A DNA stretch of 59,202 nucleotides, the filler included, from Basidiobolus ranarum (taxonomy: Eukaryota), in the NCBI GenBank assembly GCA_040143965.1. It is 2 parts of 2 records of this genome, joined end to end, with 100 filler letters (N's around TTAATTAATTAA, not from the genome) between each part and the next. Parts side by side here need not be neighbours in the genome. Positions count along the whole stretch, not along the records: positions 29,708 to 59,202 come from JASJQH010006980.1; 1 more part is not named here. The stretch is one strand, 5' to 3'. Position 1 is the first letter of the stretch; every line of letters begins with the position of its first letter. The position numbers and the translations under genes are program-made. The notes under the pieces are model-generated. The model was not told the origin of the DNA, did no database searches, and saw only the letters and a program-made list of their open reading frames with translations. Positions 49,300 through 59,202 of this stretch are shown here, one piece after another.

Positions 49300-50202
49300 T
49301 TATTTTATTGTGATTTCCCGTTTAGACATGGACGAGATCTCTATCTCCACGTGTTCCGAACGGTTTCTGTAGGAGTTATGGTTGATCTCCAGTGTATTGG
49401 GGGCTGGTTGAACATCAGTTCTTCGCACATTGTAAGAGGTCCGACATTGCTGAGTGGTAAGTAGGGAAAGGAATATCCCTAAAAAGAAAAGGATTAGATT
49501 GAAGAATTCATTGTCAGTAATCGAATTGGATTTACATAAAGCATGAAGTAATACTCCAGATTGAAGGACCCTCAGAATCTGTAAGATAAGCACCAATATA
49601 GTCACCAGTGTGATTAAAATGAGAGAGATAAAACCATCCCGAATGAGTACTTTAAATATGGGTGATGAACTAACTTTGGCATATTTGTACATGGAAAGGA
49701 CGGTCATCGAAGCCAAGAAAACGATAATACATGTACTGTTGGTCAGTAATAAGATGATGTAAATGTCACTCGTTACCCAAGAGCAATTCCCTTGTGAATT
49801 CGCGAAGATATTTCGAGTGTTCTTCAGCATGAATACCTCAACCATTATATGGGATACTTGGGAGAATCCAAATATTCCTTGTATAAGTCGAGCATGTCGA
49901 TTGATACACACTGATCTCAAATATACAAGTGTAAGCACCAACGTAACTGATGTGAAGGCCATAATATTGTACGTGTAAAAGTAGATGGTGCAGTTTGGTT
50001 GGTAGCTAAATAATCTTATGCCAAGATTTATGAACCCTGTGCAGAGTAGTAGCAATGATTGTACTAAATTTATCTTGTAGATAAGCGCTCGGTCTCCTAT
50101 CACCATTCTTATCGAGTCATATACGTCTCGAACGACTGGAAGGAAGGTAAATGTGACGAGTAAGAACTCTACCCGATCATTTATCATCGCGTCTTGGTTC
50201 AT
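49300..50202 (-). CDS. Multi-pass (about 7 TM) membrane protein, receptor-like
   Basis: About 7 hydrophobic segments, extracellular Cys pair, LIRDG before TM6; probable 57-nt intron at 49479-49535. Confidence 0.65.
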   Translation of the reverse strand: MNQDAMINDRVEFLLVTFTFLPVVRDVYDSIRMVIGDRALIYKINLVQSLLLLCTGFINLGIRLFSYQPNCTIYFYTYNIMAFTSVTLVLTLVYLRSVCINRHARLIQGIFGFSQVSHIMVEVFMLKNTRNIFANSQGNCSWVTSDIYIILLLTNSTCIIVFLASMTVLSMYKYAKVSSSPIFKVLIRDGFISLILITLVTILVLILQILRVLQSGVLLHALCKSNSITDNEFFNLILFFLGIFLSLLTTQQCRTSYNVRRTDVQPAPNTLEINHNSYRNRSEHVEIEISSMSKREITIK

Positions 50203-50999
50203 GATATGTTTTGGATGGTATATATATGGTCAAATACCCTAGGTAAAGAATACAAATCTGGGAAGTTTGATGTTAAAGGGAACGACAAAGAGAAAAAGGT
50301 CCACGTAAAATACTCGTTGAGGGCGTAGTTACTCTCCGAAATATGGGGGAGGTGGTGAATATATGGTCAGAGAAGCCGCCATGTCACGATCATTTACTCA
50401 TTAAAGTGGCAGAAATATGCCCAATGAAGCTTAGAGAAGCCGTTGCTTCAAAGTCCCGATCTTCACCTAACTCATGAAATCCAATGGTTCTCCTACGTTT
50501 CATCCAAGCTCTCATGCAGCTTCCCAAACACATCATATCCACCCTAAAATGGCTTAGGGTTTGAACTGATCTGATTGATTGAAGCGCCACGTTCGAGCCA
50601 ACATTCCAAGCGGTCGTTATGTTTGGTTAGCAAAATGAACTAATTCATGGCATGATTTTACTCCCAATAAGCAGTACTTGTTCGGTAATAAAAAATCATA
50701 ATAATTGCGGATGGTTTCCAAGCTTACAGAATAGAAGCGAATATTCAAGATTAAAGTAAATTACTTTAATAAAATTGAAATCTCACATTAAAAAATCTCT
50801 TGACTGAGATTATGTACAAATGTGATAGATAGCAGGTAATTAGTGTAACTTAAGGGAATTTAAGGAACGCATTTGAAAGCTAACGAAGAGTTCCTCATAT
50901 TTATATCTATAATACTAAGGAGGTTTGGAGAGAGCCGGAGTAAAGATGAAGATGGTGGGCAATGGGTAATGGGTAATGGGCGATAGGTAATGAATTCTC

Positions 51000-53347
<2,348 letters not shown>

Positions 53348-53881
53348 GACTTACTTGAATACCTTCTAAGAGTTGGGTCTCGAAACTGGAATTTTTCTAC
53401 TATTAACTACGAGACCACTAAAAAAAAGTGGATTTTTTTTCGCCGTCGATCATAAATAGCGTATATGCTGTGACTTGAAAAAAGTGATTTATCGAAATAT
53501 AAATTTATATCAATCAATCTGTTAACCAACCAACACCTTCAAATATAGGTTAAATTCGGGATATTCGAATTAATTAATGTGTTCAATAAACGGATTTATC
53601 AAACCAACTCGCACGAACCAGGTGATCCTGCTTACTCTCCAGCTTGGATAAAAAATCAATCAATATCTATGGTAGGTACAAATATATATATATGGTTGCA
53701 AAAAGTTCATTTTATTTTCAATATAGTTATTTTGCTCTATATGAATCACTCTGTGTAGTTAATGATATGTACTATCTGAGGTACGTTCTTTTACGTTCAT
53801 GGTCTATCTATAAAGAAATCGAGTTAGATATTCGTTGCCTTTATATATACAACATAGTCAAGAATGTAAGAGTGTTCAGGT

Positions 53882-53971
53882 AGTTCAGACATCCAAGGAA
53901 GATAATACCAGCATCGGATCTTTCGATCCTTCGGTGAAAACTGCGAATTGGTATGGTTGTTCATCATTTGG
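53882..53971 (-). ncRNA. U14: U14 (snR128) box C/D snoRNA, copy 3 in transcription order
   Basis: Box C AUGAUGA, domain A AUUCGCAGUUU, domain B CUUCCUUGGAUGU directly before box D CUGA; both domains complement conserved 18S rRNA. Confidence 0.93.
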
Positions 53972-54177
53972 ACCTCGTACATGCTTACAATCTATACTAT
54001 TTCACTCTCTAAACATTGTAGTGCCTGAAGTGAGAAGAATTCTGGAGCTGGGTTCATTTTATTTACATAACAATCTTGCTCATGTCTAAAGAGAAGTGGT
54101 AACATGTTATTAGTTTTTTCCATTACAACATTCGAATTCAGGCTCGAACCCGTCAGAATGTTAGTGTGTGAATATCT

Positions 54178-54268
54178 AGTTCAGACATCCAAGGAAGATA
54201 ATACCAGCATTGGATCTTTCGATCCTTCGGTGAAAACTGCGAATTGGTATTGCTTTTTCATCATTTAG
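54178..54268 (-). ncRNA. U14: U14 (snR128) box C/D snoRNA, copy 2
   Basis: Same C, A, B and D elements; GGAUC-GAAA-GAUCC hairpin. Confidence 0.93.
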
Positions 54269-54508
54269 ACGCCACACACTTTTACATTCTAGACCAGCTC
54301 AGCTTATAAGCAGTGTGATGGAATGTGCCTTACCTAAGAATCACTGACTGAAGAAAACTTTGACAATGCAGACTGTGGTTTTTATCATTACAACGAATAT
54401 CTAGAGTAGCAATAAGATATTAGTCAATGTGATTCGACAAACAATTGAAGTATCAGCTATGAATAGAACAGGAAACAGTAAAGACACTATTGTAGTAGCT
54501 TTCATTGG

Positions 54509-54599
54509 GGTTCAGACATCCAAGGAAGATAATACCAGCATCGGATCTTTCGATCCTTCGGTGAAAACTGCGAATTGGTATTGGTTTTTCATCATTAAA
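54509..54599 (-). ncRNA. U14: U14 (snR128) box C/D snoRNA, copy 1
   Basis: Same C, A, B and D elements; GGAUC-GAAA-GAUCC hairpin. Confidence 0.93.
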
Positions 54600-54921
54600 T
54601 GAAGCTACTACTGCTCTTGCTTCACTGCCAAGTACTGCTTTCAATATGCCAATGTTGAAATTGACCTGACTCTCACCTTATAATAGTCGGATAGTTACAG
54701 TTAACTGCTGTATTCGTAGAAGCAGAGTGGCATAGGTACAAAGTTCTGAGATGCGGCAAAATAATGAATGCGTATAGCACAGAGGTAATCAGAGTGGATA
54801 TTATATACAGTAGTCATATCTAGATATCAAAGAATGTTCGTTAGCAACCGGTTCATTCACTCTACTGTCACTCTGCAACTGAAATCGTCTGTTTCTGAGC
54901 GTGATTGAGCTTTATTGCAAT

Positions 54922-55034
54922 ACGGTCAGTAAAGTATACTGGCAAGTATGAAACGCCCTCAGCGAAGGGCATTTGTATTGTATCTTCATGATCGATAAGA
55001 CAGGTTGAAGACAAAAATGGTTTTCGTCATTCCG
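54922..55034 (-). ncRNA. SNR190: Box C/D snoRNA, snR190-like, copy 3 in transcription order
   Basis: Box C AUGACGA, D'/C' UCGA-uc-AUGAAGA, internal GCCCU/AGGGC hairpin, CUUGCCAGUAU antisense element, box D CUGA, terminal stem; adjacent to U14. Confidence 0.75.
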
Positions 55035-55219
55035 ATTGCACTATCACCACAATACATCAAACTCAGAAACCAGCAACCCATTTATAAAACTCACCTGATG
55101 TTTACACGGAGCTCGGATGTCGGAGTTTCAACAATGATTGTTCACTTTGTCTAAAAGTAAACTAATGGATTATTAGTAATTGTGTGGATGGGAAAGGACT
55201 AGCTTCTTGCGAAGTTATA

Positions 55220-55337
55220 ATGCGGTCAGTAAAGTATACTGGCAAGTATGAAACACCCTCAGCGAAGGGCATTTGTGTTGTATCTTCATGATCGATAAGA
55301 CTGGTTGAAGACAATGATGGTTTTCGTCATACCGCAT
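55220..55337 (-). ncRNA. SNR190: Box C/D snoRNA, snR190-like, copy 2
   Basis: Same elements; 6-bp terminal stem AUGCGG/CCGCAU. Confidence 0.75.
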
Positions 55338-55518
55338 ATACATTCTTGAGAATATTCAATTGAAACTTACTTACTCAAACGGAGCATGCACCCTGGGAAT
55401 GGCGGAGGGGTGACTTAGTTCTCAGATTCATTGTTAGTGTTCATGTCTGGAATAAAACTAATAACTTATTAATAAACATGTCAATGAGAATGGGAAAAAC
55501 TTCTTGCGAAGTTAAGTA

Positions 55519-55633
55519 TGTGGTCAGTTGTATATACTGGCAAGTATGAAACGCCCTCAGCGAAGGGCATTTGTGTTGTATCTTCACGGTCGATAAGACG
55601 GTTTGAAGACAATGATTGTATCGTCATACCACA
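55519..55633 (-). ncRNA. SNR190: Box C/D snoRNA, snR190-like, copy 1
   Basis: Same elements; D'/C' UCGA-cc-GUGAAGA; terminal stem UGUGG/CCACA. Confidence 0.75.
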
Positions 55634-55720
55634 CATAGAAATTCGCAGAAATAAGATCAGGTACTTACCAACTTCTAGATGTTGTGATGAATGTTATGAT
55701 GAATGTTCAATTCTGTGGCT

Positions 55721-55810
55721 CTATTTTATAGAAAACATTGACTAGGTTTATTTTTTTTCATTGCAAGGGTTTAGCTAGGAATAGGGCTAGTAATAGAGGG
55801 TATGGGTATA
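55721..55810 (-). promoter_or_regulatory. Putative promoter of the snoRNA host gene
   Basis: Minus-strand TATAAAAT at 55723-55730, preceded by AAACCTAG (~55742-55749), AAACCCTT (~55765-55772) and AGCCCTAT (~55781-55788). Confidence 0.5.
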
Positions 55811-55878
55811 TGTATTATTTATGAGTCGAGTATCTATATTATTAGATACCATATATAGGCATGAAAAAGAAATCAACT

Positions 55879-56826
55879 TCAAGGCTGTCCAATAAATGAT
55901 TTAGGGAAATAAGGTTTAAAGTAATCTTCATATTTCCTGTTAACGCACATTCCTCCACCAGTAGGTCCGATATGAGGACAATGGAAGGCTGGCCTGTAAG
56001 GGATCATGTTGACATGGATTACTCTGCACAATACATTGTCTGCTCCCATCTCGTCAGGAAGGCCTAGAGGGACCTGTCGCTGTAAGAAGTCCAGACAATC
56101 CTGAGTAGTTTTATATTGTTGATTTTCGTTCAAACAATATTTACTATGCGATTGACAAATTCCTAATGCTAGGAATTTCTGTACGAGACCTGGGAGTGTA
56201 GCAGGGGTAACTTCTGATAGTGGAACTTTCAGAAAATTAGCAATCAATGGTGCTATCTGGGGTAAGAAGCTTCGAAAAGCTAAAGACCAGCGTCGAAATA
56301 CGGCATCATATTGTTCTATTTCTCCCTTATGATTGAACCGTAACCACACATCGACTTGAACAGGTAAATGTATTCCAGTAGCTTCATGTACAAAGTCGAT
56401 TATCACGCTTGTAGATACAACATCTCCAGTTGTGGCGAACTCAAATATACTGTAACTTTTAGGGACACCCAAGATAGTTGGCACATCGGAAGAGGTAGCA
56501 AGATTAGAAAACAACCCGAATAGGTACTCTATGTTCTCCTCGAGGTCATTGAAAGTCCATGTAATATCCACTCTTCCTCGAACATCTGAGGCTAAAATTC
56601 CTGGTGCCTTGCCACTCCTTGCTATAGCGGTATTGTTAGGGTACATGAAATTTTCAAATAATCTGTTTACATAACCCAACTTCCTCTTGTAGTTTTGGTG
56701 CTGATTGATGTCAATGTTGGCCAAAATCCCACGATCCAAGCCAGACTGAGCGTTAGATTGGCCAACCAATTGATTGGAACCAATTGTAAGTAAAGTTAAA
56801 AGGAGTGCAGCTTTTTTGGTAAACAT
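55879..56826 (-). CDS. Conserved secreted fungal-type hypothetical protein with Cys/His-rich C-terminus
   Basis: Intronless 315-aa ORF with signal peptide, EYLFGLF, and CRVIH...RPAFHCPHIGPTGGGMC. Confidence 0.85.
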   Translation of the reverse strand: MFTKKAALLLTLLTIGSNQLVGQSNAQSGLDRGILANIDINQHQNYKRKLGYVNRLFENFMYPNNTAIARSGKAPGILASDVRGRVDITWTFNDLEENIEYLFGLFSNLATSSDVPTILGVPKSYSIFEFATTGDVVSTSVIIDFVHEATGIHLPVQVDVWLRFNHKGEIEQYDAVFRRWSLAFRSFLPQIAPLIANFLKVPLSEVTPATLPGLVQKFLALGICQSHSKYCLNENQQYKTTQDCLDFLQRQVPLGLPDEMGADNVLCRVIHVNMIPYRPAFHCPHIGPTGGGMCVNRKYEDYFKPYFPKSFIGQP

Positions 56827-57982: not shown

Positions 57983-59202
57983 CAGATATAGAGATTTTTC
58001 AAACTTATGCTAGAAGCCCCAAACTTTGCACACATGTTCCTGGGACCTTTCCTAACACATTTTACATGTTATTTTGTTTACATCTTGACAAAACTACAAA
58101 TGTCAACTGAATACTCAATAAATCAATAAGTGAAAACCACCAATTCCTCTAATTCTCCAAACCACTTCCAACAGGCTCCCAAATACTTTAACAGGTTATG
58201 AGCCCCGAGCTTGCACTCTCTGTAATGTCTACTTCTCAAATTTCTGGAACTTTTCCCTCTTCTGAAAAATTGGATGGAACCAATTATCAAGTTTGGAAAA
58301 TTAAAATGAAAATGCTGCTGCAAGAAAAAGGACTTTGGGACACTGTTGTAGGAGAAGAAAACAATGCAAAACTATCTGAAACCAAAGTTTTACTCCAGGT
58401 TAAAAAAGAACAAAGTGCCTTCAACACAATTTGTCTTAATGTTAAAGACAAATTACTAATTCAATGTTCAAGAGCTAAAACTGCCAAGAAGGTATGGAAA
58501 GCCTTGGAAGACACCTACCAAACAAGTTCTGCTGCCAACAAGATGTTTCTAAGAAGACAATTCTTTAACTTAAAGATGAAGCCAGGAGAAGACATTAAAT
58601 CACTAATTAATAGAGTCACTATTTTAGTGGATGAAATGGAATGCATTGGAGTACCTACCACTGATCAAGATATCATAGTTACAGTCCTGAATAGCCTGCC
58701 ACACAAGTTTCAGAGCCTAGTAATGGCTCTAGAATCAAGAACTGAAAATTTGTCTTTAAATTATGTATTTGGCAGACTTCTGGATGAAGATTTACGCAAA
58801 TCAGGACTCAACCAAAAGAGTGAAGAAAATGCTTTAATAGGCTATGGGAAACCTTCCTATAAAGGTCAAAAGCACTTTAAGAAGAAAAGTAACACATTCT
58901 GTGATTACTGTAAAAGAACTGGCCATTTAAGCAAAGATTGCTTTAAAAGAATTGCAAAAGAAGAAAAACATACTGAATCTGGAAATGTGGTTACAACAGA
59001 AGATCACTTGTTCATATCTGCTCTATCTATGACTACCAACAAGGATTCTCAGACGTGGTATATTGATTCTGGAGCTTCCCAACATTTCACAAATGAAAAA
59101 CATTGGTTTGTGGAATATGAAGAAATCCCAATTAGAAAGGTTTTCATGGGAGATGACCGCACATTGGATGCTATTGGAATGGGAACAATTCAAGTCAATT
59201 TA
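57846..59202 (+). mobile_element. Ty1/copia LTR retrotransposon, 5' part (LTR ~57846-58193, PBS 58194-58205, gag-protease)
   Basis: TGTTGAA...TTTAACA termini, GGTTATGAGCCC immediately after the LTR, open polyprotein frame. The LTR may instead start at 57709. Confidence 0.92.
58198..59202 (+). CDS. Copia gag-pol polyprotein, partial (runs off window)
   Basis: No stop to the window end. KLDGTNYQVWKIKMKMLLQEKGLW, KTAKKVWKAL, zinc knuckle CDYCKRTGHLSKDC, protease WYIDSGASQHFT. Alternative ATG at 58225. Confidence 0.93.
   Translation, partial: MSPELALSVMSTSQISGTFPSSEKLDGTNYQVWKIKMKMLLQEKGLWDTVVGEENNAKLSETKVLLQVKKEQSAFNTICLNVKDKLLIQCSRAKTAKKVWKALEDTYQTSSAANKMFLRRQFFNLKMKPGEDIKSLINRVTILVDEMECIGVPTTDQDIIVTVLNSLPHKFQSLVMALESRTENLSLNYVFGRLLDEDLRKSGLNQKSEENALIGYGKPSYKGQKHFKKKSNTFCDYCKRTGHLSKDCFKRIAKEEKHTESGNVVTTEDHLFISALSMTTNKDSQTWYIDSGASQHFTNEKHWFVEYEEIPIRKVFMGDDRTLDAIGMGTIQVNL

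Follow-up and report, generated by a model that had tools for sequence, protein, structure and literature searches.

A predicted non-coding host gene of Basidiobolus ranarum with intronic small nucleolar RNAs of the snR107/snR190 and U14 families, three of each

Introduction

Two families of short repeats lie in a gap between two protein genes of the fungus Basidiobolus ranarum, and the question that this locus raises is whether they belong to a hidden gene and what such a gene would produce. We have analysed a 59,202-nt stretch of DNA from this genome (the window; all coordinates are positions along the whole stretch), in which the locus is read on the minus strand. The original prediction proposed that the repeats are snR190 and U14 small nucleolar RNAs (snoRNAs), each lying in its own intron of a host gene without protein product. 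We favour, with a probability of roughly 0.75, a non-coding host gene of ~2 kb on the minus strand that contains six intronic box C/D snoRNAs, one per intron. Splicing and expression of this host gene are predicted only, from the sequence, and the transcription, splicing, processing and function of each copy are what we infer from the features described below.

Results and Discussion

Two repeat families in one cluster

The cluster spans 53808-55731 on the minus strand, and consists of three copies of a ~115-nt repeat followed by three copies of a ~90-nt repeat, at a spacing of ~300 bp. A repeat search recovered both families in the region that had been proposed and with its ~300-bp spacing: family A (D1 in the search), whose three 116-nt copies occupy 54919-55034, 55219-55334 and 55517-55632 (intervals of 300 and 298), and family B (D2), whose three 87-nt copies occupy 53883-53969, 54179-54265 and 54510-54596 (intervals of 296 and 331). 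In minus-strand orientation the copies follow each other in the order A1-A2-A3-B1-B2-B3. All six are bounded by C and D boxes on this strand, as the original prediction had it: a C-type box, which is UGACGA in the A copies and UGAUGA in the B copies, opens each of them, and CUGA closes it. An assembly artefact was ruled out as the source of the repeats because the flanks of the copies differ. On either side, the cluster is limited by the open reading frame (ORF) of a 315-aa protein, which ends at 55879, and by a multi-intron PRMT3-like gene, which starts near 53270.

The features assigned to the locus are listed below. Bit scores refer to the Rfam models RF04328 (snR107) and RF00016 (SNORD14), and the second E-value of each snoRNA to a profile built from environmental sequences only.

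55721-55731, minus strand: TATA-like element CTATAAAATAG; putative host-gene promoter, located ~63 nt before the first donor.
55447-55668, minus strand: predicted intron 1; donor TTG/GTAAGT; acceptor CCAG/ACA, picked for its alignment with the intron 2 acceptor; alternative acceptors 55421 and 55414 after ACTAAC.
55519-55632, minus strand: snoRNA A1, box C/D, snR107/snR190/SNORD12 family; RF04328 41.6 bits, E 1.1e-5; environmental-only profile E 1.1e-9; terminal stem GUGG/CCAC.
55151-55374, minus strand: predicted intron 2; donor region GAGTAA/GTAAGT, alternative 55370; branch point ACTAAT; acceptor TTTTAG/ACA, alternative 55162.
55217-55335, minus strand: snoRNA A2, snR107/snR190/SNORD12 family; RF04328 40.8 bits, E 1.7e-5; environmental-only profile E 3.5e-11; terminal stem GCGG/CCGC, compensatory with respect to A1.
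54820-55094, minus strand: predicted intron 3; donor CAG/GTGAGT; branch point GCTAAC; acceptor TCTAG/ATA.
54917-55035, minus strand: snoRNA A3, snR107/snR190/SNORD12 family; RF04328 44.4 bits (gathering score 44); environmental-only profile E 1.5e-11.
54401-54676, minus strand: predicted intron 4; donor AAG/GTGAGA; branch point ACTAAT; acceptor CTCTAG/ATA.
54508-54600, minus strand: snoRNA B1, U14 (SNORD14); RF00016 43.4 bits, E 5.4e-7; environmental-only profile E 4.6e-13; external stem GUAGUAGCU/AGCUACUAC.
54086-54333, minus strand: predicted intron 5; donor TAG/GTAAGG; branch point ACTAAT; acceptor CTTTAG/ACA; alternative acceptor 54143 after ACTAAC.
54177-54269, minus strand: snoRNA B2, U14 (SNORD14); RF00016 46.7 bits, E 6.4e-8; environmental-only profile E 4e-12; external stem AGUGUGUG/CACACACU; fold z-score -4.27.
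53808-53988, minus strand: predicted intron 6, the least certain of the six; donor ATT/GTAAGC, alternative GTGAAA at 54004; branch point TCTAAC; acceptor TTATAG/ATA.
53881-53972, minus strand: snoRNA B3, U14 (SNORD14); RF00016 44.1 bits, E 3.4e-7; environmental-only profile E 2.7e-12.
53711-53807, minus strand: predicted last exon, ending near AATAAA (53716-53711), a putative polyadenylation site.

Family identity of the snoRNAs

At the Rfam gathering thresholds the whole window gave a single match, that of snR107 (RF04328) on A3, with 44.4 bits for a cut-off of 44. This cut-off is reached by one of the three A copies (A1 scored 41.6 and A2 40.8; E 1e-5 to 2e-5). When matches with E<=10 were considered over 53000-56500, six full-length matches were found and none other, with snR107 falling on all the A copies and SNORD14/U14 on all the B copies, which is the outcome expected from the covariance-model check that had been suggested. 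The SNORD14 matches span model positions 1-111 (E 6.4e-8 to 5.4e-7), and both 18S-complementary blocks of these copies are intact, so the identification of the downstream family as U14 stands.

The name of the upstream family needs more care. No Rfam model named snR190 gave a match at E<=10 over 53000-56500, and therefore the label snR190 rests on the paper describing Schizosaccharomyces pombe snR107, which states that snR107 is orthologous to Saccharomyces cerevisiae snR190 and to human SNORD12/B/C, and syntenic with U14 (bioRxiv 10.1101/2024.10.03.615557). Together with the Rfam snR107 match, this published orthology upholds the proposed snR190 identity at the level of the family.

Relatives of the A copies were also collected from metagenomes. 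A strict pattern combining the k-loop and the full second antisense element (ASE2) gave no matches, and a looser pattern gave 29 loci, 21 of which were kept as family members, with C/D boxes and antisense blocks judged by eye; they represent 17 distinct sequences. The other loci (L002, L003, L007, L010, L013, L018, L021 and L028) were discarded as chance matches, having no C/D boxes by eye and no profile match. Rfam at the gathering score, applied to 20 of the 21 loci (L012 was left out), yielded four snR107 matches and no U14. Since the curated cut-offs of Rfam are too strict for such short RNAs, nhmmer profiles were used instead.

Independent profiles were then built from the metagenome relatives only (17 distinct A-family and 8 distinct U14 sequences), with the copies of the window excluded. 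Run over the whole 59-kb window, they matched exactly the 3+3 copies and nothing else at E<=10, with E-values of 1e-9 to 1.5e-11 for family A and of 4e-12 to 4.6e-13 for U14.

Conserved elements and folding

The A copies retain the k-loop region (UAUCGA...UGAAGA), a hairpin, AUACUUGCCAGUAU and the final CUGA. The element AUACUUGCCAGUAU, which is ASE2, equals the Rfam consensus at 14 of 14 positions in each of the three copies. Box D and a terminal stem of 4-8 bp are likewise present in all of them, and the stem changes from GUGG/CCAC in A1 to GCGG/CCGC in A2, a compensatory replacement of U-A by C-G that separates A1 from A2/A3. The GCCCU/AGGGC hairpin, i.e., the stem-loop between box C' and ASE2, appears in all three folds; over 15 sequences it shows changes on both sides in two of its four consensus pairs, although the consensus energy of the whole alignment is weak (-0.86 kcal/mol). 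The consensus fold of the 15 family A sequences has only 7 pairs and does not recover the terminal stem, because the flanks do not align. Fold z-scores range from -2.9 to -4.3 in five of the six snoRNAs.

In the three U14 copies, box C (AUGAUGA), box D (CUGA), the AUUCGCAGUUUUCAC block and the CUUCCUUGGAUGU block directly before box D are all present and agree, as regards the two blocks, with the Rfam consensus. The two 18S-complementary blocks are called domains A and B of U14. All 12 of 12 aligned sequences agree in the C box, the ATTCGCAGTTT(T/C)CAC block and CTTCCTTGGATGTCTGA, an invariance that is partly due to construction, the relatives having been selected by a regular expression. The U14 copies of the window are short (~90 nt), with just a GGAUC-GAAA-GAUCC hairpin between the 18S-complementary blocks; compared with them, the U14 of an Umbelopsis-like metagenome locus (L009 41-218) has an insertion of ~80 nt at this place.

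Splice signals around each snoRNA

The minus strand of the interval 53700-55720 contains exactly six non-overlapping GTRAG motifs (55668, 55374, 55094, 54676, 54333 and 53988), one before each snoRNA, with a second GTAAGT at 55370 that overlaps the donor at 55374; the plus strand of the same interval contains two. These putative donors lie 16-76 nt upstream of the snoRNAs, and a YTRAY branch-point-like motif followed by YAG is found downstream of all six copies. The best acceptors, of the form YAG/AYA, are located at 55447, 55151, 54820, 54401, 54086 and 53808, that is, 72, 66, 97, 107, 91 and 73 nt from the 3' end of the respective snoRNA. A joint test of these signals (GTRAG at most 85 nt upstream and YTRAY...YAG downstream) was satisfied by 6/6 copies and by 6.2% of 20,000 random 105-nt positions in the window, which argues for the proposed arrangement of one snoRNA per intron between a GT donor and a branch point plus AG. 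The ~10 introns of the PRMT3-like neighbour measure 50-110 nt and use GTAAGT, GTTAGT, GTACGT, GTAAGC and GTATTA as donors and TAAC, TAAT and TGAT as branch points. The predicted snoRNA introns (181-276 nt) carry the same kind of signals and are longer by about the length of a snoRNA.

The same signals bear on another way of reading the locus, i.e., an unspliced polycistronic precursor from which the snoRNAs would be released by RNase III-type cuts and exonuclease trimming, the splice motifs being incidental. Plant snoRNA clusters are processed in a similar manner from polycistronic precursors. The snR190 and U14 of S. cerevisiae are reported to be matured by Rnt1 alone, and the exonic U14 of S. 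pombe to be released with the help of Pac1; moreover, external stems of 6-15 bp, differing from copy to copy, enclose the U14 copies of the window. However, these stems are shorter than the at least 20 bp reportedly needed by Pac1 (bioRxiv 10.1101/2024.10.03.615557, PMC12508059), the GTRAG motifs occur only at the six expected sites, each with its downstream branch point and YAG, and the spacing of 66-107 nt between snoRNA and acceptor resembles both the 62-81 nt measured in 12 of 13 related loci and that of Neurospora crassa introns verified by reverse transcription PCR (RT-PCR). We thus consider an unspliced precursor improbable and retain the intronic reading.

A proposed host gene without coding capacity

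No splice model gives the joined exons an appreciable coding capacity. When they were searched for long ORFs, the longest one starting with ATG had 38-43 aa in all the 48 combinations of splice sites, and 52 aa in the unspliced sequence, and four ORFs of 63-84 aa from the unspliced region contained no Pfam family. Thus, a protein-coding reading was ruled out, in agreement with the non-coding host of the original prediction.

A separate host gene would still have to be told apart from an extended 3' untranslated region belonging to the upstream protein gene (55879-56826, minus strand), in which the snoRNA introns would be located without any host of their own. The protein gene has the same orientation as the snoRNAs, and L009, the Umbelopsis-like locus, likewise contains an ORF of that orientation which stops ~105 nt ahead of its first donor. 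On the other hand, an AATAAA at ~55750 and then the TATA-like element at 55731 stand between the upstream stop codon and the first donor, and L009 has a comparable TATA-like element, TATTTAAA, ~55 nt before its first donor. The upstream genes of the window and of L009 are different, and the N. crassa hosts are described as separate non-coding genes (PMC2780460). An extension of the upstream gene is thus very unlikely in our view, and the independent host gene remains the preferred reading.

Several observations weigh against this reading and have to be set beside the evidence given so far. The stop codon of the protein gene, at 55879 on the same strand, precedes the first donor by only ~210 nt, and therefore an independent promoter is not certain. 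The count of 6/6 for the splice signals overstates their independence, because the units are duplicates of one another. More than one acceptor is available for introns 1, 2 and 5, and only 16 nt separate the intron 6 donor from U14, whose predicted external stem includes this donor. With regard to family identity, the snR107 matches of A1 and A2 are slightly under the gathering score, and the RF00016 cut-off of 64 is missed by all three U14 copies, a shortfall due to their short internal hairpin and to the absence of the terminal stem of the model. The C box of family A is UGACGA in 3/3 copies, one base off UGAUGA, a form shared by none of the relatives examined. Finally, the first antisense element (ASE1) of the A copies is incomplete: only GUCUUC is kept, followed by AACC (or AAACC), while in the Rfam consensus and in 11 aligned Dikarya-like loci GUCUUC is followed by UUU(U/A)CCC. 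The A-family copy of L009 (385-506) departs as well, with AUUUU after GUCUUC (GUCUUCAUUUU). Since ASE1 is only partly kept, it is doubtful that the A copies of the window guide the 25S methylation that is described for S. pombe and N. crassa.

Amplification and fate of the copies

The cores of the copies are 85-94% identical within family A and 97-98% within family B, whereas aligned flanks are only 35-66% identical, the top value being that of the downstream flanks of A1 and A2. This contrast suggests selection on the snoRNA bodies of all six copies. It fits a tandem duplication of whole intron units, after which only the snoRNA and the splice signals of each unit escaped decay. An AAA-BBB amplification by duplication of units is what had been suggested.

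Duplicates may also decay, and it could be argued that a single copy of each family is functional and that the others are unexpressed or drifting to pseudogenes. A1 is the copy that differs most (85-87% core identity to A2/A3), all A copies have the non-canonical C box and the shortened ASE1, and the 21 metagenome relatives are all single-copy. Nevertheless, the contrast between core and flank identities extends to every copy, and so do the intact boxes C and D, both rRNA-complementary blocks of U14 and ASE2 of family A; the terminal stems are maintained by compensatory or copy-specific changes, and each copy has kept splice signals of its own. We assign little likelihood to the loss of function of the additional copies, and the host gene with six snoRNAs is again the better account.

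Proposed expression of the locus

According to the model that we propose, the locus would be an RNA polymerase II gene of ~2 kb on the minus strand, extending from the TATA-like element at 55731 to the AATAAA at 53711, whose purpose would be to produce six box C/D snoRNAs. Introns 1-3 would deliver members of the snR107/snR190/SNORD12 family, which in yeasts pairs with 25S ribosomal RNA (rRNA) and promotes 60S assembly, and introns 4-6 would deliver U14, which pairs with 18S rRNA and is needed for 18S processing. After splicing, debranching of the lariats and exonuclease trimming would leave the core protected by the small nucleolar ribonucleoprotein, with the copy-specific terminal and external stems bringing boxes C and D together, and the joined exons would probably be a disposable by-product. 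In the likely ancestor, each snoRNA was single-copy and occupied one of two consecutive introns, as in Neurospora and, as far as its contig reaches, in L009; this arrangement may have grown to AAA-BBB via tandem duplication of ~300-bp units made of an intron plus an exon.

The linked pair in metagenome relatives

Each of the 21 relatives has one copy of the A family. A U14 was found downstream on the same strand in 13 of the 16 loci with ~800 nt or more of downstream sequence, one U14 each, starting 163-359 nt past the end of the A-family snoRNA; the other five loci end less than 160 nt past the snoRNA. The first nhmmer profiles run on the 21 loci contained the sequences that they then found. 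In 12 of the 13 linked loci an acceptor-like site is located 62-69 nt past the first snoRNA, and in 12 of 13 another one 68-81 nt past U14; a strict donor regular expression applied between the two snoRNAs found a donor after the acceptor in 6 of 13.

The linkage of snR107 and U14 is not universal, because in L022, L025 and L027, with 0.8-8.7 kb available, the profile found no downstream U14. The snoRNAs of this subgroup lie at L022 8682-8799 (the best Rfam score of all, 51.4 bits), L025 799-922 and L027 5359-5482.

The relative closest to the A copies of the window is L009, which shares with them GUCUUAUCGA and the CUUCGCUGAG hairpin loop and matches snR107 with 40.4 bits and SNORD14 with 41.4 bits. 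An ORF adjacent to its snoRNAs is 90% identical to a protein of Umbelopsis vinacea, which points to Mucoromycota. Its layout consists of GTAAGT, the snoRNA, TTCTAAC...TTTCAG, GTATGT and U14, and the contig ends before the acceptor of U14. Thus, a second early-diverging lineage possesses the linked pair, with one copy of each snoRNA, the first inside a predicted intron and U14 following a second donor. This extends the linkage of snR190 and U14 beyond ascomycetes, as had been anticipated. The early-diverging position of the host in the window is supported by its neighbourhood, since the adjacent protein is closest to Basidiobolus proteins and Basidiobolus belongs to Basidiobolomycota, outside Dikarya.

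Comparison with known systems

Earlier publications on Neurospora, S. pombe and S. cerevisiae have described the linkage of the two families and their intronic layout in a non-coding host, the S. cerevisiae unit being intron-less. In N. crassa, CD16 (the snR190 homologue) and CD37 (U14) are described as intronic members of cluster V, co-transcribed according to RT-PCR (Liu et al., 2009, PMC2780460), and they are hosted by a UHG-like gene in which all ORFs are short (PMC2780460). CD16 guides a 26S G through a 13/0 D' duplex, and in the table of the same report U14 (CD37) guides an 18S methylation (PMC2780460). Cluster V resembles the window in that its transcript carries the same two snoRNA families, with a separate intron for every snoRNA in a host with short ORFs, and in its distances to the splice sites, which are typical of intronic snoRNAs. 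It differs in the number of copies, single in N. crassa and 3+3 in AAA-BBB order in the window, and in the D' guide, full in CD16 (13/0) but reduced to a shortened ASE1 in the window; furthermore, N. crassa is an ascomycete.

The S. pombe snR107 is reported to be a 107-nt intronic C/D snoRNA of the mamRNA-U14 precursor, upstream of U14, with an ASE1 that guides methylation of a 25S G (helix 73) and an ASE2 (25S domain I) that supports 60S biogenesis (bioRxiv 10.1101/2024.10.03.615557). Its U14 is exonic, and Pac1 cleaves a hairpin that extends across the splice junction (bioRxiv 10.1101/2024.10.03.615557, PMC12508059). The mamRNA-snR107-snoU14 unit and the window share an intronic snR107-family snoRNA before U14, and snR107, with its two elements complementary to 25S and the stem-loop that follows box C', is the founder of the Rfam family matched in the window. 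Unlike in S. pombe, all the U14 copies of the window look intronic; the S. pombe unit has single copies, a canonical UGAUGA C box and a long 5' exon involved in meiotic regulation through Mmi1/Mei2 binding.

In S. cerevisiae, snR190 and U14 form an intron-less dicistron that is cleaved by Rnt1, and snR190 is described as a 60S assembly chaperone whose predicted target is not methylated (bioRxiv 10.1101/2024.10.03.615557). The order is the same as in the window, with the snR190-family member first and U14 second on one transcript, whereas the yeast unit has no introns, depends on Rnt1 processing and contains single copies.

Human ZFAS1 carries SNORD12, SNORD12B and SNORD12C in consecutive introns (bioRxiv 10.1101/2024.10.03.615557). 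As in the window, three paralogous copies of this snoRNA family occupy consecutive introns, one per intron, of a non-coding host; in contrast, U14 is not in ZFAS1 and the two families are unlinked in humans. Vertebrate U14 copies occur in several introns of a protein-coding host.

In a fungal snoRNAome survey, snR190 (CD_16) and U14 (CD_37) are among the families not found in Basidiomycota, and the available text of that survey does not discuss their linkage. Our literature search found no previous description of snoRNAs for Basidiobolus, nor of a U14 snoRNA for Mucoromycota, although survey supplements may hold calls from early-diverging fungi.

Evolutionary and functional meaning

Three features are new here: the blocks have been amplified equally, to 3+3 copies, which none of the 21 relatives shows; the linked pair occurs in Basidiobolus-like and Umbelopsis-like fungi; and ASE1 has undergone a lineage-specific erosion, accompanied by a UGACGA C box. 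The pair formed by a snR190-family member and U14 is not an ascomycete peculiarity, as it is found in yeasts, in N. crassa and in two early-diverging lineages, and its occurrence in the latter supports an old, possibly functional, coupling of a snoRNA of 60S assembly with a snoRNA of 18S processing. The analysis also provides an annotation of six snoRNA genes and their putative host in a lineage for which we found no snoRNA study. The 3+3 amplification and the eroded ASE1 bear on snoRNA dosage and on whether the chaperone or the methylation-guide role is ancestral.

A more speculative proposal, which we hold to be rather doubtful, is that the pair in consecutive introns of one host was already in place before Basidiobolus-type fungi, Mucoromycota and Dikarya separated, and that its block-wise 3:3 amplification responded to selection for balanced dosage. 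If this were true, the 3:3 amplification would reflect selection for a balanced, co-transcribed dosage of the two snoRNAs, with a built-in coupling of 40S and 60S biogenesis.

Neighbouring genes

The protein of 315 aa encoded at 55879-56826 (minus strand) has a signal-peptide-like N-terminus and the Pfam domains PF28387 and PF28386. It is 77-80% identical to three Basidiobolus proteins, and its next relatives (35-44% identity) are from Ascomycota, with a few from Basidiomycota, in a patchy distribution; after the Basidiobolus proteins, the best hit is at 43% and comes from ascomycetes. At the other side of the cluster, the PRMT3-like arginine methyltransferase gene (50990-53270, minus strand) encodes an N-terminal C2H2 zinc-finger motif and a methyltransferase motif and is interrupted by the short introns mentioned above. 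On the plus strand, an open frame of 335 aa at 58198-59202, which runs off the end of the window, combines a zinc knuckle of the CCHC type (CDYCKRTGHLSKDC) with a DSGAS protease motif, and resembles the beginning (Gag and protease) of a retrotransposon of the copia/Ty1 type. The ORF of 300 aa at 49300-50202 (minus strand) has several hydrophobic stretches and probably encodes a multi-pass membrane protein.

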